Assembly (NCBI GenBank): GCA_013115125.1
Contig: JABANN010000012.1
Coordinates: 62,001-126,000 of the forward strand
Source of the DNA: Perkinsus olseni
Taxonomy: Eukaryota
Length of the DNA stretch: 64,000 nt
Direction of reading: 5' to 3'
Shown here: piece after piece, positions 3,850-61,333 of the stretch
How the letters are laid out: each line of letters opens with the position of its first letter
How positions within the stretch are numbered: the stretch's first letter is position 1
Notes under the pieces: generated by a model
The model's input: only the letters and a program-made list of their open reading frames with translations
The model's database searches: none
What the model was told of the DNA's origin: nothing
Position numbers and translations under genes: made by a program

Positions 3850-4640
3850 CAGAGACTGTGTGACTCGAGTAATGCGATCGATTGTCTCTGGGGATGTTGT
3901 TTGACGCAACAATTCCTGTAAAAGTCGGGACGGACCTTATGTGTGTATGGTGACGTGGATGTCGATTTTCCTGGCGCGTCGATCAATTGTTGCTCAGCCA
4001 CCAGCCGGTGCGATGATACGGGTCACACTGCGGCTGATACGAGGTTGCTTCATGGCTCAGGCGCATCAGCATATCATTCACGAAGTCTTCCTGCTACATA
4101 TCGTCTCGAGCCTCGAGACTCGAGGTGATGTTTTGGATGATACTGATCGCAAGTCGGAAGAACTGCCTCTGAAGGAGACAGCGCATTGTTGTCGGAGCCG
4201 TTGATTGGAGGTGAGAACACTTCTACAGGTCCACGGCATCTTCATTTACTATCTCCGTGTTCCGTGGCAGCGCATGCCGCTGGGGCCCACAGTCGATCTA
4301 CCCATACGCACGAGCAAGAGCTGAGAGGATAGCCCTGACGCTGGACAGTTCGCAGGAGACGCCGCGCGAACACGCGAGCGACGAGCATCATTTCCGCGCA
4401 TGTGAACGCCTCCTCGACAAAACGGTGAGAGTTCCGAAAGTTGAGAACCGATGTTACAAAGTACGAAGGAAAGTATTTCCTTGAGGCCAAGTGTCGTCTA
4501 CAAGCTGTATCGTGGCCAGGCGGGCTGAGGCAAAAGAATCCGATTTACGCTAGAATAATCAGTGCGATGTTTTGCACCCACGCGAAAATTGCAATGAACT
4601 CGATGTAGAGGGATTCGGCTCAGCCGAATCTGCTGCGACC
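3850..4640 (-). pseudogene. Decayed duplicate of the 3' half of the neighbouring TMEM184/OST-alpha gene
   Basis: Colinear similarity with the intact gene: 3901-3925 to 5111-5135, 4041-4100 to 5263-5330, 4281-4310 to 5519-5550, 4561-4610 to 5792-5845. Translation retains QEDFVND (intact gene QEDFLND) next to a TAG stop and a frameshift. Confidence 0.75.
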
Positions 4641-10623: not shown

Positions 10624-11363
10624 TTTGTGTAAATCTTCCCCTAGATTCTTGCGCAATCTGTGCTCGTGGGTCACGAGTCGTGGCGGAGATCGCCTAGAAG
10701 AATCTATCAGCCAATTCCACGTTGCGAAGGACTTTTCTCTTCTCACAGTGATATGTATGCAGCAGCCTCTCTAGCCTCCCGAGAGTGTGTGACCTGGCGA
10801 CTCATCCGAACAATTTCTGGTTCCTTACATGCACTCGTTCAGGCTCCAAGGAACTCAGAAAATATTCTATCCATGAAACTTGTTTGGGATAATTCATATT
10901 CGCAGACTTCGTCCTGGGTGAGTCAACTGAGATGTACACCCGGTTCCTTCCCTCTAGCATTTATTAGTGAAGTAAGAAAAGTGTTATATGTCTGCTTCCC
11001 TGTCACGGCCCCAACGGCAGCCGGGTTGACCCGCTCGGTGTGAACCTGAAGTCTTGGATCTGCTGCTAATACCTGCCCGGAGTCCAGCTCGCTGGCCACT
11101 GGCTTCTGAGCGAATAGCTGCGACTCGGCACCCACCTTGAAAGCGCAGCCCAACTCATTATCGAAAGGGCCGTCGACATCGATGGCAACAATATGGCGAT
11201 CAATCAACGATGAGTTAGCCACCAGTCGAGCCCGCACTCGAGAAAATCCGAGGGACGGAGCAGCGATCTGAAGTGTCAGAAAAGTTTTTTGGACCTTTCG
11301 AGTCGAAAGTTTCGACCGCACTTTTTCACTCGGTTCAAGGGGCCGAGTGATCGAAATTACTAA

Positions 11364-35152: not shown

Positions 35153-37630
35153 TCAAGAACGTCGACGGGACTTTCGCTCATCCTCACGGTCGTCTGAGAA
35201 GACAACGATAGACAACAACAGTAGCCATCTGAGTTCATTAGCACCTCCACGAGATCTCTTGCTTGACTGTGACTTCTGCTGCTGCTGGGGTTCATCATCG
35301 TCATCCAAGAGGCCCGACAGTCCGAATTGGTCCTGGACTCCAGCCGCTTCGAACTGCACCGGTGCTTGTCGTTGGTACACCTGAAGATCCCCTGTGACCC
35401 ACGAGCAGCAGCCGTAGACCCGCCTTACCGCTGCAGCACTGTTGCTGCTGCCACCAGCCTTCTCCTCGGCCCGGTCGTACTCCTCACGGGCCTGTTCTAG
35501 ACGCTTAGCGTCATATTGATAGATCTTGTTAGCCGAGGATCGATCTGATCGCACGCCCGGACAGCGATGAACAACCACACACCGGCGTCACACTGGCGCG
35601 TCACATCAGCAGCAGCGCCGTCCCCCCGCCTACCCGCGAAGAGCCTGGTATCATACACGTTATTGGCACCATCATCATAGAACCCAGAATCCAGACCCCC
35701 ACTCTGGTTAAAGAGCCGGGCATCGTACTGCCCTTCACCCTTCGAGCTCGGTTGGACCTGATCACAGCACCGATCGCCACCCACCAGCGATAACGAGAAG
35801 CATTGCCTGTTTGCCCAGGGCGATGAGCTCGGAGATGTCCCGTTCCTCGTCCCTGTCTCGGCCCTGTTTGTTGCGTCCAGCCTTCTCCATACGGTGCTCC
35901 CGCAGAGTCTCTCGCATGACCTCAGCACGAGCCTCGTCCTGCTTCCGGTAGTCTACCACAACACACTCGTCACACACCGCTGCAGTGGTGACCCTACCCT
36001 CAACTTCCTCCCGGCCACTTCTGCCACCAGCAAAGGCGTTGGTGCGGGACCTCCGTGCCTTGGCTGCCAAGTCACGAAGCTTCTGCTCCTCACTCTCCTG
36101 AAGGGTTCCGAGATCTCCATCGGTATTCCAACCAGGGTTGCGGGTACTTGTTCGCGTGTTGCCTTCTGCTTGGCCAGCTCATTCCGGATCCTGATCTCCT
36201 GTCTAGCCTTAGTCTCTGCGATATAGAGATCCTCAGCGAACTGTGCATGCCTCTCGGAGACCGTCACATCCTAATAACACATCAGCAACGATTTGGAGAC
36301 TCCAAACGAACTCTCCCAAAGTCGGCGCGCTCCTAATGGCAGCTTACAGTACCGGATAACCCACTCATGGGGGAGAGTCAGCTACGAGATAGAGAGTGGG
36401 CGTTAGTTTAGGTAGAGGGACAAAGAACATACCCTTGACCTCAGCTGTCCCAACGCCTACCACAGTTGGAAGCCTCCCGTGTCCCAACTACTACCTGCAA
36501 ACCTCTGCCATCCGCAGCAATACGCTTATCCAAAGGGATGACATAACCCTTAGCGTTCTTCCAGTTACTCACGCACGGTGGAATCTTCCACATCTGATCG
36601 ACGCAAGAGGATTAACGCTGCCTAACGATGATCGTGGTGTGGGTCCTACGGCCTGGTCCTCCTTCGTCAACTTTTTTGGAGGAGATCGTAGCACGGGCGG
36701 CGGGGGCTCGCTAGGGGCTGAAGGGGAGCAGAAGGCAATCAGCAGCACTGCTGATTCAGTCCGGTATCGACGAAGTCAGTCCAGACGTTCTATTAAGAGC
36801 GCCAGTGATCCCTATTACGGGCAGGAACTTTGTGATGGCGGAACTTCGGTGGCTCCATGGGGTCCTTCTGGACCTCGACCACCTTGATGACCCTCTGCTT
36901 GATGTTAGGGTTACGACCAGGAGCGTCCTTACTCGGAGTGTACCTGACAGGACCACCACCCCATACACATATCCGAAAATCCGTTGCCTCGCTATAAAAA
37001 CGCCTGCATCGTGGCTACTGCTGTGAACTGGTTTGTAGGCGACGCTTGCTAGGGAACGCTAGGTTCGCCAGAGAACGCACTCGCAAGGATACCCTCATTC
37101 CTTCTGTCAGTATTACCGTAGATACTGAGCATTGGCCAGTTTCCTCTGAGCATCGTTGGCTCCCGATAGATGCTGTCTGGTCGTATCAGCCTGTCCGATG
37201 CGTTGGGCCAGGACAGCTGAGAGACGGCCATTCCCTCACAGCCCACGACCGCCCTCCTCCCTTATCACCTTCCAGAGCACTGCGAGTATCATCCGTATTT
37301 TTCTTCAGCTCTAGAGCATCGGGCCTGTCCAGACTGGTCTCAGGAGTCCATCGCTCCTTGAGGTCGCCTAAGGGTGAAGATACCCTCATACGGGAGGTCA
37401 GGGCTATTACCAGGTTTATGCTGGTGTCGTGCCAAGGCCTGCTTGATGGAGTTGTCAGACGCTCTTACTATAGACATAGTGGAACAGAATGACGCCGCGT
37501 TGCTGGTTGGAGGGAAGAGGCAAGGTTCGTCGATTACAATGGCGTGCGCGATTGATCAGCGCAGTTTGCGCACGACGTGCAGGTGCCAAAATCCTGTCGA
37601 GTCGATCATCACACTAGAGGTCTCATAGGC
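35153..37630 (-). CDS. SNW1: SNW-domain splicing factor SKIP/Prp45 (multi-exon)
   Basis: [81 protein letters not shown] and PVQFE. The start is approximate. Confidence 0.92.
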
Positions 37631-47250: not shown

Positions 47251-49521
47251 ATGAGAGCCTTGCCTCTGACAACACTCTTCACGATCCCGTGCATCGTGCT
47301 GTTGCTCAGCTTAGCAGGCTGTAGCAGCAATGGAGGTGCAACTACTACGGCCCCAGCGACGAGCACTGCACCAACCACCGCTCCAGTAGTGACCACTACA
47401 CCCATCCCTCAGGGGGCCGTGGCGTAAGAGAACACTGCCTGGTCGAGTTGGAGCCGCCGTCCTTAGGTACGTCACCTCCGAGAGTGGTGGAAATATGACG
47501 CGCCGTTCTGTTACTGTTGATAATGGACCGGCAACTACCTACCACGTTAGATTGAACTCTGGTAAGCCTACAGGGAATCGTCCTGTGGGAGAGGGCGCTG
47601 GGAGCGCCAAACACGGCCCGTGTGGCGATCATTCAATGATGTTGTGAAGTTGGGGTCTGCTTGGGTGGATTTCTATCTGCCTAATTCTCAGCGTCGTTGA
47701 ACCATCGGCCAGTTGAAGGGTTCGGAGGTGCCTTCACAGCGGCATCTGCTGTCAATTACAAGAAGTTGAGTGATGAAGATAAACGCAGATTCATTGAGTT
47801 GTGAGTATCTGGTTACTTCGGTCATTCTAAGCATCCTTTGAGTAGATACTTCGGTCAGAGCGGCCTACGCTACACTATGGGTAGAATACCAATCAACTCG
47901 TGTGATTTTAGTCCGTACACTTACAACTTCGACAACGTCTCTGATGATTTCACTTTGGAACACTTCGATGATTCTTTGAAGGGAGATGAAGACACCGGGA
48001 TGATTCAACTCCTTCACGACGCCTTGGCGGAGACACCACTGAAATTATTCGGTAATCCATCCCATGCTTGGTGGAGAATCGGTACGTCTCACGTGTGTAG
48101 GAAGCCCGTGGTCCCCACCGTACTGGATGAAGGCTGGTAATCACCCGATGGTCGGCAGCCCCAATCCCTGCCTCAAGCAGGATAAGAAATATAAACAAGT
48201 CTGGGCCGACTACTTCGTCAAATGGGTATGCGCTGTTACGTTTCCGTTCCCGCACTTTCCCTTCTCCCCATCAGATTCAGTCATACGAGAAGAAGAACAT
48301 TTCCATTTGGGGCGTCACACAGCAGAATGAGCCAATGTAAGTCATCGCTCTCCTATACCATGAGGGCCTCATGGTGAGGCAGCTCTTAGGGGTGTACACT
48401 CATTCACTCAGGTTTTATTCGAACGCGCGATGGGAGGCTTGCTCATACGACCCCGCCAATCAGACCGAGTTCATCAGGGACTACTTAGGACCTACCCTGA
48501 ACAAAACTTTCGGCGATAGAGTTAAACTCATGTACATGGACTTCGTCAGAAATCTTCTCATGGAGGTCTCTGACGTCCTCCTACAGGACAGCAAGGCTGC
48601 ACAGTGAGTCTTTCCTCGTCAGGGCTGGATAAAGATGGGCATTGGCCATCATCGCAGGCACGTCTACGGTGCCGGGGTGCATTGGTACGGTTTGAATAGC
48701 ATCGATACTCTCGAGGCGTTCAAGACCAAATACGGCAGTAAATATGCTGTTTGGGGGACTGAAGCAAGTAGGCAGGGTTTTCAGCTGGCAATTTCACAAT
48801 GAAGATACATGACCTACTCAGGCACCTGCTACCCGGAGGACCGTTTTTTCAATACACCATGGAAGAGAGCTGCCCGTTATGTTCACGGTGTGATTGTAGA
48901 CTTCGTACACGGTGGAGGAACTGGCTGGGTGGACTGGAATCTTCTTCTCGACGAGATAGCAGCGCAAGACGTACGTCCGCTCATCCTTATGACTGACTTC
49001 CTATAGCGATCGCCACACTTTTGGTTAATCATTGTCAGAATCGCGGGGGTCCGAATCACGCTGACAACTATTGCTTTGCACACATTCACATCAACAACGC
49101 GAGTCAGCTTGTGGTACAGAAGATGTCCGTACCGGTCTCTCCGGTATCGTTGTATCAGATACACCCGTCTTACTACACCTTTGGGCACATCACCAAGTTT
49201 GTCGCTCCTGGCGCTAGAATGGTTACGTCTCTGAATGTGTCTAAGTCTGAACCAAGCTCAATCTTCACTATCGATACCCTAGAGGCCATGGCCTTCGTGA
49301 ATGAAGCCAAAACAGAGTTGGAAGTTATCGTAAGCCAATTGAACGAGTGCCCCTCCATCTGCGGTTCCCAATCCCAGGTGCTCAGCAGTCAGGAGGACGA
49401 CATATCCGATCTGATCACCGAGGTCCAACTGCCAGGCGGGCAGTATCAGACCATTCACGTTGGTAAAGTCTCCGGCTACAGTGTTACCACCGTTCTACTC
49501 CCCGGAACTTTCTCGGGCTGA
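47251..49521 (+). CDS. Glycoside hydrolase family 30 (glucosylceramidase-like), copy 1, with signal peptide
   Basis: VEGFGGAFT, MGRIPINSCDFS, SPWSPPYWMK, WGVTQQNEP (acid/base Glu), GVHWYG, GTEA (nucleophile Glu), GWVDWNLLLD, GGPNH and YYTFGHITKF. Confidence 0.92.
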
Positions 49522-51022
49522 GATTTTTTCTCCACCACTACCCCTGTTCGCTTCATGCAGGGGAGTACTGAACTTTTGCTTTCATTGCTCCCGATACACC
49601 ATATTGAGTGTTTCGAGCCTTTGTCGACCGAAGATGGTCAATTTCTATCACACATCATACCAAAGAATCGTGTTTCGTTGCACAGTATACCTTAACCATG
49701 GGCATTGCCTGCCCCTTCAGTATATCTCATGCGATGTCTGGTGGCGTGAATGATTTTAACTGGATAATGCTCGCTCGGCTATCTGCAAATGACTCGAAGG
49801 GAAATTCTCAGACTGAGAATCTCAGTCATGAGTAACACCTTTCAAGTAGCCAATGCCAAAAATTACAAAGGCGACCTTAGCAATTTCTGGCGTTCGTTCC
49901 TCACAACAAAAAGGGATACGCTTATTGATGCAGAGAAACCTACTCTGATTCTGATTATCGACCCGAGTTCCACGTGTCAAAACTCCGAACTGCGAAGTGC
50001 TGGCGTGATGATGGTGGTCGAGGGAGTGAGGCGCTTCGCAACAGTTTAGGAAGCGCATTGCCAATATAGGTGCCTCACCTCGAGGTCTCAAGTGAAACTG
50101 AGCTCCTGTTTCTGAGGACGCAGGTGACATCCTCAGTGGCTCGACGCCGACAGTTGGCCGGCAGCACAGCTATGCAGTGTTTAATGCACCCTGTAGGAAC
50201 AACCGACCCCAGATCGAGCAATCGCCTACCCCTCTCCAAGGCGGGTTAGCTGTGCGGTATAGCCTGTAGCCGAGTAGATCTGGATGCCACATGAAGTTTT
50301 GAAGGCCACGAAGCGGAAGCGAAGTGCTAGGAGGTGCAAATCCGCCCGATTTCTTCATCTGTCTCCGTTGCTGTCGGCTCATCGCAGCTCCCTTCGATTG
50401 CTGCTGCCCGTTATCCTTCTTGCCACCTTCAGGACTTGAAGTTCTGGTCCTTCGGTGGGCTTTACTGGTTCAGTTGACGCATATCAACTTCTTTCGTGTC
50501 TCAGCCCAGGACTTGCCGCCATACTCGGGAATGTCGCAGCATAAGCTCTCTCGTAGGTACCCTCAGTGGTCGTACGGCTGAGCTGAAGAAGAAGAAAAAC
50601 GTTAAAGTGAAATTGAATCGGATACATGAGTTCGGTGAGACTGCGCAGAGATCTGCTTCACTGAAGATGCGCTATTATACCTTCATTCATCGGACGAAGC
50701 AGGTATAGAGCTGAAATTCGAGCAGGAGTTACGGGGCTTGTTCCCCTCAACTGGGACTGCGCCACGAAATTACACGCCTACGCATGAGCCGACCCTGAGG
50801 TCCAGGTTTGGAAAGTATTCCGAACCATCCCCGGTAGTGGGTATGCGGAGGAATTGGTCATCCTGAGTGCTTCTGGCGTGATGCGCGGCGTCTGTCTACG
50901 GTAAAAACGAGGATCGTAGGTGGCCAGACGGTGCGAATTCTGAGCTGTCCGGGTCCGTAGACATCATTAACAAAATCATTCCCGATGAAAATCTGAGTGG
51001 TATGAAAATACCGTCGCCACTA

Positions 51023-51095
51023 GCGACTCGCCAGGAATCGAACTCGGGTCCCTTACCATCCACGGTATCCTTGGAATGGACTGGTCACCAGTCAC
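51023..51095 (-). other. tRNA-like 3' half (B-box) in TE-like DNA; second copy at ~54889-54961
   Basis: The minus strand reads GGGACCCGAGTTCGATTCCTGGCGAGTCGC; the 5' half is scrambled by palindromes. Confidence 0.45.
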
Positions 51096-51264
51096 TGGTG
51101 CGCTGCGTGTAGGATCCAAATCGCCGCCAATCCTAACGGCAACAAGTGCCAGGCTTATGAATTATATCAAGGACTCCCCTGAGCAACCACTAGGTCCCGT
51201 TAAGAAGTTGTGGTGGAGATGGTCGCTTCTTCTAAGAAGCGATTTCTATCTTCCCAATCCTCAG

Positions 51265-53080
51265 GCTCGTTGAACCATCGACCAGTTGAGGGGTTCGGAG
51301 GGGCCTTCACAGCGGCATCTGCTGTGAATTACAAGAAGTTGGGTGATGAAGATAAACGCAAGTTCATCGAGTTGTGAGTATCTGGTTACTTTGGTCATTC
51401 TGGGCATCCTTTGAGTAGATACTTCGGTCGAAGTGGCCTACTCTACACTATGGGTAGAATACCAATCAACTCCTGTGACTTTAGTCCGTACACTTACAAC
51501 TTCGACAACGTCTCTGATGATTTCACTTTGGAACACTTCGATGATTCTTTGAAGGGAGATGAAGACACCGGGATGATCCAACTTATCCACGACGCCTTGG
51601 CGGAGACAAAACTGAAATTATTTGGTAATCCATCCCATGGTCCGTGGAGAATCGGTACGTCTCACTTGTGTAGGAACCCCGTGGTCCCCCCCGTACTGGA
51701 TGAAGGCTGGTAATCACCCGATGGTCGGCAGTCCTAATCCATGCCTCAAGCAGGATAAGAAATATAAACAAGCCTGGGCCGACTACTTCGTCAAGTGGGT
51801 ATGCGCTGTTACGTTTCCGTTCCCGCATTTTCCATTCTCCCCATCAGATTCAGTCATACGAGAAGAAGAATATCTCCATTTGGGGCGTCACACAGCAGAA
51901 TGAGCCCATGTAAGTCATCGCTCGTCTATACCATTGGGCAGCTCCCAGGGGTGTACACTCATTCACTCAGGTTTTATTCGAACACGCGATGGGAGGCTTG
52001 CTCATACGACCCCGCCAATCAGACCGAGTTCATCAGGGACTACTTAGGACCTACCCTGAAAAAAGCTTTCGGCGATAGAGTTAAACTTATGTACATGGAC
52101 TATATCAGAAATCTTCTCATGGAGGTCTCCGACGTCCTCCTACAGGACAGCAAGGCCGCACAGTGAGTTCCTCTGGTCAGGGTTGGATAAGGATGGGGCA
52201 TTGGCCATCATCGCAGGTACGTCTACGGTGCCGGGGTGCATTGGTACGGTTTGAATAGCATCGATACTCTTGAGGCGTTCAAGACCAAATACGGCAGTCA
52301 ATATGCTGTTTGGGGGACCGAAGCAAGTAGGCAGGGTTTTCAGCTGGCCATTTCACAATGAAGATACATGACCTACTCAGGCACCTGCTACCCGGAGGAC
52401 CGTTTTTTCAATACACCATGGAAGAGAGCTGCCCGTTATGTTCACGGTGTGATTGTAGACTTCGTACACGGTGGAGGAACTGGCTGGGTGGACTGGAATC
52501 TTCTTCTCGACGAGATAGCAGCGCAAGACGTACGTCCGCTCATCCTTATGACTGACTTCCTATAGCGATCGCCTCACTTCTGGTTAATCATTGTCAGAAT
52601 CGCGGGGGTCCGAATCACGCTGACAACTATTGCTTTGCACACATCCACATTGACAACGCGAGTCAGCTTGTGGTACAGAAGATGTCCGTACCGGTCTCTC
52701 CGGTATTGTGGTATCAGGTACACCCGTCTTACTACACCTTTGGGCACATCACCAAGTTTGTCGCTCCCGGTGCTAGAATGGTTACGTCTATGAATGTGTC
52801 TAAGTCTGAACCAAGCTCAATCTTCACTATCGATACCCTAGAGGCCATGGCCTTCGTGAATGAAGCCAAAACAGAGTTGGAAGTTATCGTAAGCCAATTG
52901 AACGAGTGCCCCTCCCTCTACGGTTGCCAATCCCAGGTGCTCAGCAGTCAGGAGGACGACATAACCGATCTGATCATCGAGGTCCAACTGCCAGGCGGGC
53001 AGTATCAGACCATTCACGTTGGTAAAGTCCCCGGCTACAGTGTTACCACCGTTCTACTCCCCGGAACTTTCTCGGGCTGA
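51265..53080 (+). pseudogene. GH30 copy 2, 5'-truncated (lacks exons 1-2 and the signal peptide); remaining exons look intact
   Basis: Similarity to copies 1 and 3 begins about 30 nt before the intron-2 acceptor (51232-51264). Upstream sequence belongs to the duplicated TE-like flank. Confidence 0.75.
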
Positions 53081-55399
53081 GATTCTTCCTCCACCACTAC
53101 TCCTGTTCGCTTCATGCGGGGGAGTACTGAACTTTTGCTTTCATTGCTCCCGATACACCATATTGAGTGTTTCGAGCCTTTGTCGACCGAAGATGGTCAA
53201 TTTCTATCACACATCATACCAAAGAATCGTGTTTCGTTGCACAGTATACCTTAACCATGGGTATTGCCTCCCCCTTCAGTATATCTCATGCGATGTCTGG
53301 TGGCGTGAATGATTTTAACTGGATAATGCTCGCTCGGCTATCTGCAAATGACTCGAAGGGAGATTCTCAGACTGAGAATCTCAGTCATGAGTAACACCTT
53401 TCAAGTAGCCAATGCCAAAAATTACAAAGGCGACCTTAGCATTTCTGGCGTTCGTTCCTCACAACAAAAAGGGATACGCTTATTGATGCGGAGAAACCTA
53501 CTCTGATTCCGATTATCGACCCGAGTTCCACGTTTCAAAACTCCGAACTGCGAAGTGATGATGGTGGTCGAGGGAGTGAGGCGCTTCGCAACAGTTTAGG
53601 AAGCGCATTGCCAATATAGGTGCCTCACCTCGAGGTCTCAAGTGAAACTGAGCCCCTGTTTCTGAGGACGCAGGTGACATCCTCAGTGACTCGACGCCGA
53701 CAGTTGGCCGGCAGCACAGCTACGCAGTGTTTAATGCACCCTGTAGGAACAACCGACCCCAGATCGAGCAATCGCCTACCCCTCTCCAAGGCGGGTTAGC
53801 TGTGCGGTATAGCCTGTAGCCGAGTAGATCTCGATGCCACATGAAGTTTTGGAGGGCACGAAGCGGAAGCGAAGTGCTAGGAGGTGCAAATCCGCCCGAT
53901 TTCTTCATCTGTCTCCGTTGCTGTCGGCTCATCGCAGCTCCCTTCGATTGCTGCTGCCCGTTATTCTTCTTGCCACCTTCAGGACCTGAAGTTCAGGTCC
54001 TTCGGTGGGCTTTACTGGTTCAGCTGATGCGTATCAACTTCGTTCGTGTCTCAGCCCAGGACTTGCCGCCATACTCGGGAATGTAGCAGCATAAGCTCTC
54101 TCGTAGGTACCCTCAGTGGTCGTACGGCTGAGCTGAAGAAGAAGAAAAACGTTAAAGTGAAATTGAATCGGATACATGAGTTCGGTGAGACTGCGCAGAG
54201 ATCTGCTTCACTGAAGATGCGCTATTATACCTTCATTCATCGGGCGAAGCAGGTATAGAGCTGAAATTCGAGCAGGAGTTACGGGGCTTGTTCCCCTCAA
54301 CTGGGACTGCGCCACGAAATTACACGCCTACGCATGAGCCGACCCTGAGGTCCACGTTTGGAAAGTATTCCGAACCATCCCCGGTAGTGGGTATGCGGAG
54401 GAATTGGTCATCCTGAGTGAGGAGAGAGCGCGTTTGCTCACCCCGTGGAACGTAGCGGAGGGGGAGTAGGAGGAGGAGGGAAGATTGGAAATCTGTCACT
54501 GTACGGAAACGCTCGCGGCAGAGACAGCCGCGGCAGTGCTTTGTGAAATTGTACAAGCTCAGGGAGGAGGCATGCTGGCTTTTTCTACCAGTCCAACGTC
54601 GAGAACTTCCTTTGAGGCATGTTGATGCGCATGAGGCGCTCTGCAGCCCTGCAGTGACAGTCACTGCGGTGACTGAGTCACTGAGTGACTGCAGGGCAGT
54701 CGTTGCCTTTCGTGTTACGGTAGCATTGTTACCTGCTTCTGGTGAGATGAGCGGCGTCTGTCTACGGTAAAAACGAGGATCGTAGGTTGCCAGACGGTGC
54801 GAATTCCGAGCTGTCCGGGTCCGTAGACATCATTAACAAAATCATTCCCGATGAAAATCTGAGTGGTATGAAAATACCGTCGCCACTGGCGACTCGCCAG
54901 GAATCGAACTCGGGTCCCTTACCATTCACGGTATCCTTGAAATGGACTGGTCACCAGTCACTGGTGCGCTGCGTGTAGGATCCAAATCGCCGCCAATCCT
55001 AAGTTAGGATTCCTAACGGCAACAAGTGCCAGGCGTATGAATTATATCAAGGACTCCCCTGACTCAGGGGCCGTGAGCAACCACTTGGTCCGGTTAAGAA
55101 GTTGTGGTGGAGATGAGAGTTTCAAACCACTCGGGAAAAGCCCCCTGTCCAGTGGGTGGTGGTGGAGTAACAGTATCAGATCGAGCTTCCATCTAAAATC
55201 CCCACAGATCCTGCATACCGACAAGCGTCGGGATACGCAGTCTTCACCGGATGACGAATGAGCGAGTCGGTGGCTGCGATCTATCAGAACTTTTCATAGA
55301 AGTTCTCATAGATCTCTTGCCCGCGGGGGGAAGCTCCTCACCGTGAGGAGTTTCAACCGTATCATTTGCCCGCTGCTGCGATTTACAGCCCAGCAACGG

Positions 55400-56830
55400 C
55401 ATTATCATAGCAACAGGAGGGAGCTGGCAGCCTGTTGTGAAGCGATTCAAGCCGCAGCCGACGTCATCAGTCACCTTGCCAGCTAAGTCGCGGGCTCCTT
55501 ACCACCGATTGAGATACCAGTTGTGTCGGATAACCGGCCGACAGTGGCCTGGTTAGCAGGAAGTGGCGTGTTTTCCAAGTCAGCTCTCGAGAGGCGAGCG
55601 GCATTGAGGACCCTGAACGCTTTGAAAGACGAAGTGGACTACCTCAGAAGCATTGGTATGGTATCGATATCGCACATAAGCGGGAGCGACAATTCGGAGG
55701 TGGACGAACTCAGCCGACTTTTCGAATAAGGCTAGAGTCTGGCTCCCGAATGACTTTGGGCCAAAGTCTTCGGCTGACGCTCTCTTGGGAGGCACCGACG
55801 AGAAACAGGATCTGTCGAGCTTTCCCGATGTGTTCGATTCAGGAGCGGTCCAAGGACCCGGACCGGGTCACCCGGTCTATCATGGATATTTGAAGAAGAC
55901 AGTACCATCACGCAAGATACCTTGGACGTCTTCTGGGGACTACCGGAGATACCCCGTTAACGCGAATATTTTGAAGAAAATGCTCAAGTCTTCGCCGCTG
56001 CCAATCGCTTCGAGGATCGTCTCTGCATAATCGAAACGCTTTGTGGAAATGCATACGATGCCTGCACGGTTTTGGTGGATTTCCAATTCTTAAGGAAGGT
56101 TTTCCGAGCAATGCACCCTCAACGCAGGGAGCAAGAACTACTCCCAAGTTAGGGAGGGGCGGAGAGACAAGCCCAAGAAAATTGGACCTGTTTTCATCGT
56201 GCATTACAGAGCGATTCGGCTGTGACAGTGTGGCCCGCGGGACCTTATTGTACCGGCTCGGATGGGATAATATGTTTCCGGAATGGCCAAGCCGACGGCA
56301 CCATCGACCTTTTGCCAGTTGTCCCGAAAAGACCGGGATCGTGCGCGGCCTATAGGAAGAAGGTTCTCAGGGACGCCCACCGGGCGACGGTGGCGCATGT
56401 ATACAATCAATACTATATGCTTGAGATACGCGTCGAGGCGAAAAGGCTGGTGAAGTATTGTTATTGCCGCCAGACCTTGCGCGCCCGCAGACAGTGGTCC
56501 CAGTTATCTGGAGTTCCGGACAAGTCCAGCGCGGTCCGAGCCGAGCCCCACACCGAAGTTTCTTGACGTTGGGTGAGTTGAGAGGATCTGGAGGACCGAT
56601 GAAAATCCTCACCGTCTACTGCCTTGGCACTTCTCATTCTACTTGGGTTCTCTGCTCTGAGCGCATCGCCGACGTGCTGCACGCTCTCGTGAGGGTGCAG
56701 CAACAAGAAGGAGGACTCCGAGTGATAAGAACCGACCGTGCAGCTTATTTTAGAAGTAATCTATTCGCTCAAGAGGCAGCCCGCCTCCTGCACGCCACCG
56801 TAATACGGGTGGCCCAGCGGGGAAGAATGT
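55400..56830 (+). mobile_element. Decayed LTR-retrotransposon pol (RNase H plus integrase)
   Basis: RNase H-like SDNRPTVAWL...ISHISGSDNSEVDELSR, integrase zinc-finger-like VLRDAH...AKRLVKYCYCRQTLRA, and catalytic-core-like ILTVYCLGT...GGLRVIRTDRAAYF. Multiple stops and frameshifts. Confidence 0.75.
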
Positions 56831-57938
56831 TATTCTTTCCCAGCCGAGACTGAGTGTCCTTCCGAAGCCCGAAAGTGGCATCGCGCCTATAAAAGCTCAG
56901 CTTACACTTTCTCAAAAACGGGAAGTAGCCTACTTCAAGTAGCGGCTGCCGCGCGCTTCCAGTATTTATGTGGATTCCGAGCTCGAGCCGCTCGAGCTGA
57001 TGATTGTGAGATAAGTTTGAGATGTATGATGATGACACGGGTGTGGAAACTGTTGTACCGCATTGTTCTCGTCCGTAGGCCGCACATCTGCGATTATTTT
57101 TTCTCATCTAGGAGTGTGGGTGCAGTTCGATCGGTGGATAGTGCCGAGTAGACTCGGCTGGCCCGATGAGAACTGCCCCGTCGTAGAGCGGTTACTCTTT
57201 GCCCAAGAGAGGGATTGTCGCGTTGAGACAATAGGGTGGGAACAACAGCAGCACGAGAAGGTTTTCATGTGAAAGCCACGATCTCAGTACACGGGAAGCA
57301 GAGTCTTAGCAGATCATCTGCACATCTGCCGCAGATGTAGAAGCACAGGATGACAAATGTCAGCCCCACTGGGGCTGGCAGAACAAGAGGGGATCCACCA
57401 TGGCGCAAACATGACGAACCTATCCACTACGCGATTAGTCAGTCCTTCCACCAGGAGGATGAGGGGCCGGCGGCTACGATGACAGCAGCACGCGACGCAT
57501 GACAGCCCATCTCTGCCACACCTGTCTCCACCGCACAGACCATCAAATCCCCGGCTCGTCACTAAAACGTGGCGCAAGACGTGCCCTATGAGTGCCTCCA
57601 ATACAACCGAGACTCTTAAGGATGGCCAGCGATCGATCATCACTAGCGTAATAACAAGAGACGCGCACATACTGCACGCGTGCATCAGCACAGCTCATTG
57701 GTCATGGGGAGATCTCGTGCCTTCGTCAATTGCTTTCACGCATGAGTCAATTGCCCTTGGAGATGCGACCTTGAACGGTATATACCTCTAGAGTCTAGAC
57801 GACTCAGCTAGTGCGGAGTTCGCGTGTCTACGGTTGTGCATTCAGTCTGCCTTGACGGTCTTCCCCTCAGCGACTTGAACATACGGGGTTGTATATCAGG
57901 GAAAAGTCCCACATAGTATTAGTTTATCTGTTGCTATC

Positions 57939-60236
57939 ATGCGCATCATGATACCGGGCGTAATGCTGCTGCTAACTGCGGTGAACTGTCGCAAACTGGG
58001 GGGTGCTAAAGGCGCCATCGGTGGAGCTCCAGATGTGAGCACTCCAACCACCCCCGAGGAGGCCGCAGCGTAAGAAAGTGCCGCTTCCTGCAGTTCTCAA
58101 AGTTATCACATTCAGATACGTCACCTCCGAGAATGGTGGTAATATGATACGCCGCAAGGTTACGGTTAAAGATGGACCGGCTACTGCCTACCACGTTAAA
58201 TTGGACTCCGGTGAGCATCCCTGGATACTGACTTCTGTTCAGCACGTAGGATCGCTAAAGGCCTCTGAGGGCACTTGATGTACCAACGCAAGCCGTCACT
58301 CGCAATCGGAGTGGACAGCCTCAGTGTTATGAATATCTTTCAGTGAAAGACGGTCTGTTCTAAGACGCGATTTCTATCTTCCCAATCCTCAGGCTCGTTG
58401 AGCCATCGACCAGTTGAAGGGTTCGGAGGTGCCTTCACAGCGGCATCTGCTGTGAATTACAAGAAGTTGAGTGCTGAAGATAAACGCAAGTTCATTGAGT
58501 TGTGAGTATCTGGTTACTTCGGTCATTCTGAGCATCCTTTGAGTAGATACTTCGGTCAGAGCGGCCTACGCTACACTATGGGTAGAATACCAATCAACTC
58601 CTGTGACTTTAGTCCGTACACTTACAACTTCGACAATGTCTCTGATGATTTCACTTTGGAACACTTCGATGATTCTTTGAAGGGAGATGAAGACACCGGG
58701 ATGATTCAACTCCTTCACGACGCCTTGGCGGTGGCAAAACTGAAATTATTCGGTAATCCATCCCATGCCTTGTTGAGAATCGGTGCGTGTCACGTGTGTA
58801 GGAAGCCCGTGGTCCCCACCGTACTGGATGAAGAATGGTAATCACCCAATGGTCGGCAGCCCATATCCCTGCCTCAAGCAGGATAAGAAATATAAACAAG
58901 CCTGGGCCGACTACTTCGTTAGATGGGTAGGCGCTGAGGTGACGCCAGACCTCGAGCGCCTCCCTCTCAGATTCAAGCCTATGAAAAAAAGAATATTCCC
59001 ATTTGGGGTGTTACGCAGCAGAATGAGCCTCTGTAAGTTTGGAGGACCTCTCTTGTTCTATTCTAGCATTGGTGAGCTATCAGGTTCTACATCAACTTCT
59101 GGTGGGAGGCTTGTTCATTCAGCCCCTCTCAGCAAACAGACTTTATAAGGGACTATCTAGGACCCACACTGAACAGAACGTTCGGTGATAGAGTTAAGCT
59201 CATGTTCATGGACTTCGTGAAAGAATTCCTCATGGATGTCTCTGATGTCCTTCTACAGGACAGCAAGGCTGCACAGTGAGTTTTCGAAGCCCACAGGGCG
59301 GGACTAGTCTTTTCCCCTAGTGTTTGAATCCTGGACCAGGCATGTTGCACGAGGTTGTGTGGTTTGGTACTGGTTAGACTTGCAGGTTTATTTATGGTGC
59401 CGGAGTGCACTGGTACGGATTCGACCAAGTTTATAATCTGGAGCGGTTCAAGACCAAATACGGTGGTAAATACGCTCTCCTCGGAACTGAAGCAAGTAGC
59501 AAGCGCTGTTAGCCGCGGAAAACAGTGAGGAACCTCGGCCAGCTCAGGCACCTGCAATTGGGACACCTTTTTCTTCAATACACCATGGAAGAGAGCTGCC
59601 CGTTATGTCCACGGTGTGATTGTAGACTTCGTACACGGTGGAGGAACTGGCTGGGTGGACTGGAACCTTCTTCTCGACCAGCTTGCAGCACACGATGTAC
59701 GCTCGTTAACTTCTCGATCGCTAGTCCACCACGACGAGTCTCTGTTCTCAGAATCGCGGGGGCCCGAATCACGCTGGGAACAATTGCTTTGCACACATTC
59801 ACATTGACAACGCGAGTCAGCTCGTGGTATGAAGGATGCCCGTTACTCGGCCTTCCAGGCATTGTTGTATCAGATACACCCGTCTTACTACGCCTTCGGG
59901 CACATCACCAAGTTTGTCGCCCCTGGCGCTAGAATGGTTACGTCCCTGAGTGTGTCAGAGTCCAGGCTAAGCTCAATCTTCACTATCGATACCCTCGAGG
60001 CCATGGCCTTCGTGAATGAAGCCAAAACAGAGTTGGAAGTTATCGTAAGCCAATTGAACGAGTGCCCCTCCATCTACGGTTCCCAATCCCAGGTGCTCAG
60101 CAGTCAGGAGGACGACATATCCGATCTGATCATCGAGGCCCAACTGCCAGGCGGGCAGTATCAGACCATTCACGTTGGTAAAGTCCCCGGCTACAGTGTT
60201 ACCACCGTTCTACTCCCGGGGACTTTCTCGGCTTGA
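57939..60236 (+). CDS. GH30 glucosylceramidase-like, copy 3, with a different signal peptide
   Basis: Start MRIMIPGVMLLLTAVNC. Same exon structure and catalytic motifs as copy 1 (TQQNEP, LLGTEA, GWVDWNLLLD). Confidence 0.9.
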
Positions 60237-61333
60237 GAATATTCATGTCCACCCCCGGCTCGACATGGGGCTGCCTCAAACTCTCGCTTTTGTTGCTTCC
60301 TTGACGTCACAGAGAGTGCTCCTTTTTTCAAACAAACGAGATCAATTCCCATTTGCTCTTCTTTCTACTCATTTCCCATTTCTCATTTCAATACATCATG
60401 TTGGTTTGATCAATGACCCGAGTCGATGCCCCGGCCGACCGCTGCATGCTCGCATGGGAAACCTACGGGTGGCCGCCATGCGGCGAATGGGAGTGTGAAC
60501 AGCGGGGTTTCGTCGCTCATGTTGTGTGAAACGCTAGCGTTGAACGCGTATAGTAACACATAACGCGGCGCGAAACGGATGATTTTAGAGGCCAAAATGC
60601 GGGAAACGTTCACATGTTAAACATACCGCTATCCGTAGCGCGTTGATATAACGCGCGACATGCGAAACGCATTTCACTGCACAGCTGAGAATGTAACTGC
60701 CATACCCATATAGACAGTGAGCCGCAGGCCCGATATCAGTCTACTGATGATGAAGGGAATCGGAAAGCGTCAGAATTCTACAAGCACAAACCAACCTTGG
60801 CGCCCTAAAGTTGAAGGTCCACCTCTGCGGCCGTGCACTTTTTTCATGGTATTGATTCCTACTCTGATGAGTGATTCTCGGATAGTGGTGCGTTGAACGC
60901 GCTTAACACTTAGGGCAACGCGGTAAACACGTCACGATGGGTTATCTCGTTAGCGTTTCACGCGTGCGCTATGACGCGAAGTGTTATTGCAACACCAAAT
61001 ACCGCGTTTCTTGCGAAGACACACCGCGACAAGCTGTTCTGCGGGTAAAACGGGTGACACTCCAGTGTATGACGCTGCTCTGATCTGCTCAAACTGTGGT
61101 AGAATCTTGACAGTCAGACCTGGGAACCAGGCGGCAGCCAATTGTTACTCAGTTGTGAACTCGTAGTTGGTGGCTACACAAGCAGAACTCGAGAGAGCTG
61201 CCCGATCCAGTGCCTTCAGCAGCACGCAAGGACGAAGGCAGTTGCCACCGAGTGCGCAGGGCGATTCCGTCAGACAATATGTAGAGGATAGAGCAGTGAT
61301 GCAGAGGAGTGATATAGTGTCTATAACGATATA

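Follow-up and report, generated by a model that had tools for sequence, protein, structure and literature searches.

The nearest known counterparts of the sequences reported here are the excision footprints of Ac/Ds, a hAT element studied in plants, Saccharomyces, and Candida. These footprints keep the duplicated 8-bp target, have palindromic additions whose center complements the base once next to the element, and are interpreted as hairpinned flanks joined by the host (PMC5873905; PMC1978519). These footprints are heterogeneous: 128 Candida revertants yielded 28 types, in which at most 3 nt were added, and arms of up to 20 nt occur in yeast (PMC5873905). Mutator-like elements, including Muta1, also form flank hairpins and generate duplications of 8 to 10 bp (8 to 9 bp for Muta1), and excision of Muta1 in yeast is reported to be >90% precise (PMC5499845). 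Merlin-related open reading frames (ORFs) are reported in Perkinsus marinus, with no inverted ends or duplications found for those copies (PMC8101967). Dada elements make duplications of 6 to 7 bp (PMC3706591). For Perkinsus, a literature search retrieved no paper on either hAT elements or palindromic scars.

The window, the whole 64,000-base stretch of Perkinsus olseni DNA analyzed here, is eukaryotic nuclear DNA, with tRNA-Pro(AGG) genes, Piezo and ion-channel ORFs, and short GT..AG introns. Comparison of the window with itself revealed a tandem duplication, its period ∼3.57 kb, consisting of unit A (47668-51240) and unit B (51241-55115). Each unit carries a plus-strand gene for a family-30 glycoside hydrolase (GH30) of the glucosylceramidase type (∼47800-49540 in A and 51411-53223 in B) together with spacer DNA; in unit B, Pfam PF02055 matches ORFs within 51411-52166, and spliced exons occupy 52031-53223. 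The gene has five short introns of 45 to 68 bases, four with GT..AG ends, as judged from a spliced contig of run X9. An older third copy of the unit, ∼83% identical, lies at 58358-60253, with a third GH30 gene copy starting at ∼58500. The duplication is now ∼4% diverged: 47668-50869 and 51241-54419 are 95.7% identical over 3,205 columns, and the tails (50868-51221 in A and 54734-55115 in B), which are spacer between the GH30 gene copies, are 89.8% identical over 382 columns, gaps included, with 13 substitutions in ∼354 bases. A BLAST search of the tail against the window returned the A/B pair and no further copy.

Five multi-base indels separate the homologous parts of the two units, three of 14 bases, one of 8, and one of ∼314, in addition to three single-base indels. 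Two of the 14-base indels lie in unit B and one lies in unit A (48361-48374). All three belong to the scars described below, which makes scars one of the main causes of length change in noncoding DNA at this locus. The largest indel is a stretch of 314 bases in unit B (54420-54733), which is absent from A and rich in GTCAC-type palindromes; run X7 contains the bulk of it, the left part being different there. This stretch was considered as a transposon and rejected, as it lacks an 8-bp duplication and has just 2 shared bases at its joint.

The initial annotation of this DNA described two palindromic inserts in the tail of unit B, and its letters at both sites were confirmed: unit A reads aatcctaa|cggc (51129-51140) and cccctga|gcaacc (51176-51188), and unit B reads AATCCTAA-GTTAGGATTCCTAA-CGGC from 54995 and CCCCTGA-CTCAGGGGCCGTGA-GCAACC from 55056. 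The alignment of the two tails that it had proposed, performed with MAFFT, places two 14-column gaps in unit A at these sites, the exact placement of each gap being ambiguous by rotation. The two 14-base inserts separating the copies are real, and both long alleles follow one 22-base formula, N1-7 followed by the reverse complement of N1-8 and then by N2-8, a net gain of 14 bases over the 8-mer N1-8. Scar 1 (54996-55017), found in unit B only, reads ATCCTAA GTTAGGAT TCCTAAC and is an exact 7+8+7 block on ATCCTAAC, which stands as a single, unscarred 8-mer at 51130-51137 in the tail of unit A. Scar 2 (55056-55077), also restricted to unit B, reads CCCCTGA CTCAGGGG CCGTGAG and is a 7+8+7 block on CCCCTGAG in which one base departs from the formula (G for C at 55073), the unscarred 8-mer being at 51176-51183 in the tail of unit A. 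The end given for the second insert, 55074, falls short of the scar, which extends to 55077. The 9-base reverse complement at the first site is the 8-base unit extended one base by chance. The proposal that the inserted bases were copied from local sequence stands, each scar being built on its own site's 8-mer.

Two other origins were considered for this DNA and rejected. The inserts are not a mobile mini-element, each being built from the sequence of its own site. A tRNA or short interspersed element (SINE) origin of the tail, prompted by GGAATCGAAC, was dismissed after ARAGORN found nothing in scar-collapsed tails and Rfam (E values of up to 10) returned just a 9.7-bit chance match to a snoRNA.

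The same 7+8+7 block recurs throughout the window. A scan of the 64,000 bases, with 50 order-2 Markov shuffles as the control, found 10 exact 22-base blocks in the window and none in the shuffles. The 10 exact matches represent 8 independent events, since two pairs are copies produced by the duplication. With ≤1 mismatch, the count was 16 (shuffle mean, 0.02), and with ≤2 mismatches it was 19, compared with about 0.1 to 0.3 in shuffles. The formula was then generalized to units of 5 to 11 bases and offsets of 0 to 2, with 40 shuffles, and the only enriched design combined a unit of 8 bases with an offset of 1 (10 exact matches; shuffle mean, 0.0). At this offset, units of 6, 7, 9, 10, and 11 bases gave no exact match in the window, and the 5-base unit gave 4 (shuffle mean, 1.2), which we count as shuffle level. 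No exact match was found at offset 0 for any unit from 5 to 11 or at offset 2 for units of 7 to 11; at offset 2, the 6-base unit gave 1 match (shuffle mean, 1.3) and the 5-base unit gave 16 (shuffle mean, 18.3). Allowing ≤2 mismatches, the 9-base unit gave 1 match (0.03 expected), units of 6, 7, and 10 bases were at chance, and the 10-base unit gave no match at all. The single 9-base case, at 54667-54691 (8+9+8, 2 mismatches), may represent a rare event with a 9-bp duplication.

Palindromes with a 1-base center and arms of ≥7 bases numbered 35 in the window, compared with a mean of 4.4 and a maximum of 9 in 30 shuffles. Even-centered palindromes were not enriched (3 versus 4.9 for spacer 0, 7 versus 4.4 for spacer 2, and 4 versus 4.5 for spacer 4), and those with a 3-base center (19 versus 4.4) are the 1-base-center class counted with one pair fewer. 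Enrichment confined to the 1-base offset bears out the earlier observation that the single central nucleotide complements the base at the break. Arrangements in which both copies of the site are kept and only 1 to 7 palindromic bases are added gave 0 to 3 matches per size, near the shuffle means, and repeated collapsing of scars revealed no nested scars past the first round. The geometry therefore does not correspond to a free templated insertion rejoined through short microhomology (cctaa and tga), as initially proposed: what was taken for microhomology is the second copy of the 8-base duplicated site, 7 bases long, and the geometry is rigid. The initial reading was partly right, and a stereotyped transposon-excision scar explains the data better.

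Seven scar positions lie within the duplicated units, four of them common to A and B and three present in one copy alone. In addition to scars 1 and 2, the copy-specific class includes a scar found in unit A only (48359-48380; CATGAGG GCCTCATG GTGAGGC, one mismatch). Among the common scars, that at 51079-51100 (B copy, 54945-54966) is exact and predates the duplication, and that at 53364-53385 (A copy, 49805-49826) is also exact. The scar at 54879-54900, on GTCGCCAG, is exact in B and has one substitution in its A copy (51013-51034), which the scan scores as 2 mismatches; the scar at 53977-53998 is exact in B and has 3 mismatches in its A copy (50427-50448). The coexistence of common and copy-specific scars indicates that the process was active before the duplication as well as after it, which upholds and extends the earlier claim of later activity. 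Further scars lie in the downstream spacer between 55753 and 56943, starting at 55753 (1 mismatch), 55855 (exact), and 56922 (1 mismatch), and in noncoding DNA elsewhere between 4104 and 18161, starting at 4104 (exact), 4614 (1 mismatch), 11295 (exact), and 18140 (1 mismatch).

Several of these scars have conspicuous surroundings. Those at 4104-4125, 4614-4635, and 11295-11316 adjoin tRNA genes, two lying between two tRNA-Pro(AGG) genes and one lying 48 bases upstream of tRNA-Met. The 3.8-kb spacer upstream of the third gene copy (54650-58350) is a local hotspot with ∼15 one-base-centered palindromes or scars, none of them inside long ORFs. A variant order, direct, direct, and inverted, occurs at 57315-57338 (CATCTGC A CATCTGC C GCAGATG T). 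Solitary 1-base-centered palindromes with no second direct copy, at 36292, 55334, 56980, 57361, and 58336, may be half-scars.

The target sites themselves share a palindromic preference. When both ends of the 14 independent sites were considered (28 half-sites), position 3 was a pyrimidine in 25, and position 2 was C in 12, T in 10, A in 6, and never G (binomial P of ∼3 × 10^−4 for the absence of G). The resulting pattern, with pyrimidines at positions 2 and 3 and purines at positions 6 and 7, is symmetric, as would suit a dimeric enzyme choosing its targets.

The scars resemble Ac/Ds footprints in having an 8-bp duplicated target and palindromic additions offset by 1 base. They differ in their uniformity: Ac/Ds footprints are varied, whereas here a single saturated 22-bp form predominates (10 exact cases), intermediates occur at chance level, and no element was found in the window. 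The near absence of intermediate footprints suggests that the break-repair repertoire operating here differs from those of plants and yeasts. The target consensus of hAT elements is nTnnnnAn; the scar targets resemble it only in part, being symmetric without following that consensus. A closed hairpin of flanking DNA that gives a palindrome on unfolding is also a feature of Hermes/hAT hairpin chemistry and of the P nucleotides at V(D)J coding ends. Zhou et al. are said to have found in 2004 that the first nick is made one base into the flank. V(D)J P additions are short and variable, whereas here the whole 8-base duplicated site unfolds every time. End joining by polymerase theta and replication template switching share with the scars the local reverse-complement copying at a repaired break and the need for fill-in, which here amounts to 14 bases. 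Insertions of these kinds are of varying size and do not depend on an earlier duplication of the target, whereas the size and offset of the present scars are invariant.

From this block structure, we infer a prior direct duplication of the 8-base site followed by two fold-backs, the center of each complementing the innermost base of a site copy, and the single fixed geometry points to an enzyme-defined event, the insertion and excision of a transposon, rather than to spontaneous template switching. With a probability that we put at roughly 0.7, a hAT-like element came and left at each site, and its excision exchanged the 8 bases of the site for a 22-base scar, the 14-base insert being the difference. 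A hAT-like cut-and-paste transposon with an 8-bp target duplication would have entered ATCCTAAC and, separately, CCCCTGAG in unit B after the duplication, and each element would later have been excised, leaving each of the two flanks capped as a covalently closed hairpin, in which 7 bases of one strand would be joined to the complement of the 8th, so that the tip would be the complement of the element-adjoining base. Where c denotes the complement of N, the left hairpin strand would read N1-7, c8, and c7 to c1, and the right would read c8 to c2, N1, and N2 to N8.

Once melted, these hairpins could anneal to one another through their returning strands, c8 to c1 against N1 to N8 being the one long complementarity between them. 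Nicks where the hairpin-hairpin pairing ends, extension of each 3′ end by 7 bases, and ligation would give a top strand of N1-7, c8 to c1, and N2-8, that is, 22 bp in place of 8. Annealing of hairpin to hairpin would explain why the scars have one size and add 14 bases, why intermediates are lacking, and why the block is symmetric under reverse complementation. A chance nick 8 bases from a hairpin tip would give the same sequence but leave the uniformity unexplained, and ordinary annealing of 3′ strands would restore the 8-mer without trace, so that scars would be the only visible outcomes. We advance only tentatively, as a proposal more likely to be wrong than right, that this constitutes a repair route new to description, in which two transposase-made flank hairpins are joined across the full 8-base site with a 7-base fill-in per strand to give one deterministic 22-bp product; a bolder variant, which we hold no more firmly, would substitute a domesticated hAT-like enzyme without a mobile element. 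Such hairpin-hairpin joining, if true, would replace the usual nicking near the tip and end joining.

Unscarred alleles with a single 8-mer were observed in unit A at both focal sites, in unit B and the third copy for the scar at 48359 (with 2 substitutions in B), and in a relative from run X7 for the scar at 54879. No element with an 8-bp duplication and inverted ends was found in the window at the stricter setting, and there were 11 weak candidates without shared ends; no occupied allele at the scar sites was present among the contigs listed; and the 57 ORF translations scanned from the window gave no match to a transposase family. It might accordingly be asked whether a transposon is needed at all. 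The inserts are reverse-complement copies of adjacent sequence, as they would be if a stalled or broken 3′ end had copied the complementary strand and rejoined by microhomology, through template switching or polymerase theta snap-back. Copied length, loop size, and return point should then vary, but one geometry is enriched, with 10 exact matches and none at neighboring unit sizes of ≥6. The product also contains three copies of the 8-mer (direct, inverted, and direct), which would require a prior direct duplication, and the sites share a symmetric sequence preference. We consider such transposon-independent insertion unlikely. If a transposon was responsible, other superfamilies that make duplications of ∼8 bp have to be weighed, namely, Mutator-like elements (8 to 10 bp, with flank hairpins), Merlin (8 to 9 bp), and P (8 bp). 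Muta1 resembles the inferred element in its flank hairpins and 8- to 9-bp duplications, and Merlin-related ORFs are reported in P. marinus (PMC5499845; PMC8101967). An 8-base unit fits the lower bound of the Mutator-like range (8 to 10 bp, commonly 9); units of 9 and 10 bases gave no exact match and one case with 2 mismatches. Excision of Muta1 is reported to be mostly precise (>90% in yeast), and 9-bp events are essentially absent from the present window; no inverted ends or duplications were found for the P. marinus Merlin copies; and a tip whose center complements the adjacent base is the feature described for Ac/Ds (PMC5499845; PMC8101967; PMC5873905). Attribution to one of these superfamilies thus appears very unlikely, and a hAT-like element remains the preferred source.

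The order of events at the focal sites depends on which allele is older. The initial annotation took the short alleles of unit A to be ancestral, and comparison of the copies agrees that they are most likely the older state, although no third copy or outgroup covers the two focal sites. At 48359, where the third copy provides an outgroup, the A-only scar is polarized by that copy as an insertion: unit B (51932-51939, CATTGGGC) and the ∼83%-identical third copy both lack the scar and its 14 bases. The third copy supports the unscarred B site CATTGGGC, two neighboring positions of which do not match CATGAGGC, the 8-mer implied by all three parts of the A scar, and the site seems to have been altered before or during the event. 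For the scar at 54879, run X7 contains an unscarred relative, with a loose end at 54885, and a second such relative is probably present in a contig of 27,712 letters from runs X1 and X4, in which the piece on 54789-54922 includes 14 gap letters. Conversely, both focal scars might predate the duplication and have been lost from unit A by precise 14-base deletion or in a single gene-conversion tract from an unscarred paralogue. Direct repeats of 6 to 7 bases lie 14 bases apart in each scar, so that slippage could in principle restore the 8-mer exactly, and paralogous tail pieces exist elsewhere in the genome. This timing would nevertheless require two exact reversions 46 bases apart beside the older scars at 51013 and 51079, which the A tail has kept; divergence of the tail is ordinary (13 substitutions in ∼354 bases), with no sign of a foreign conversion tract; and the only scar with an outgroup is polarized as an insertion. 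We judge the loss of older scars from unit A to be rather unlikely. The outgroup at 48359, the unscarred relatives of the 54879 scar, and the need for two exact deletions beside retained older scars together favor unit A as ancestral, with insertion into unit B.

Because the region is a tandem duplication, assembly error also has to be considered. All of the runs compared consisted of contigs rather than raw reads, and the assembly may derive from one of them. A contig of 3,424 letters, obtained identically in runs X1 and X4 from two studies, matches 54973-55600 with 0 differences, spans both focal scars, and enters the unique right flank, and it starts exactly at the first unit-B-specific 31-mer. 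The long alleles are thereby backed by contigs from two studies, and blocks of this design occur at 14 independent positions; an assembly or sequencing artifact is hardly conceivable. Over 50842-51183 in unit A, contig depth is >0, and no piece or indel row among the matches listed covers the short-allele sites. Metagenome contigs gave 0 matches to the flanks of site 1 separated by a gap of 8 to 22 bases. Run X9 (organism B) was tried as an outgroup for the spacer and set aside, because its contig sits on the gene exons only, looks spliced, and is uninformative on the spacer.

Duplication of the spacer has supplied matched before and after alleles of the same sites, a single 8-mer in the unscarred state and 14 additional bases in the scarred state. 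The 7+8+7 rule permits scars to be counted genome-wide, and such counts could be used to date transposon traffic relative to duplications and could reveal by what route hairpin-capped breaks are repaired in this parasite lineage.

Units A and B meet in a 19-base filler (51222-51240), which has no match in either flank and holds the palindrome GCTTCTT-CT-AAGAAGC, with a 2-base center. This palindrome raises the possibility that the tandem duplication may itself have arisen at a hairpin-type break.
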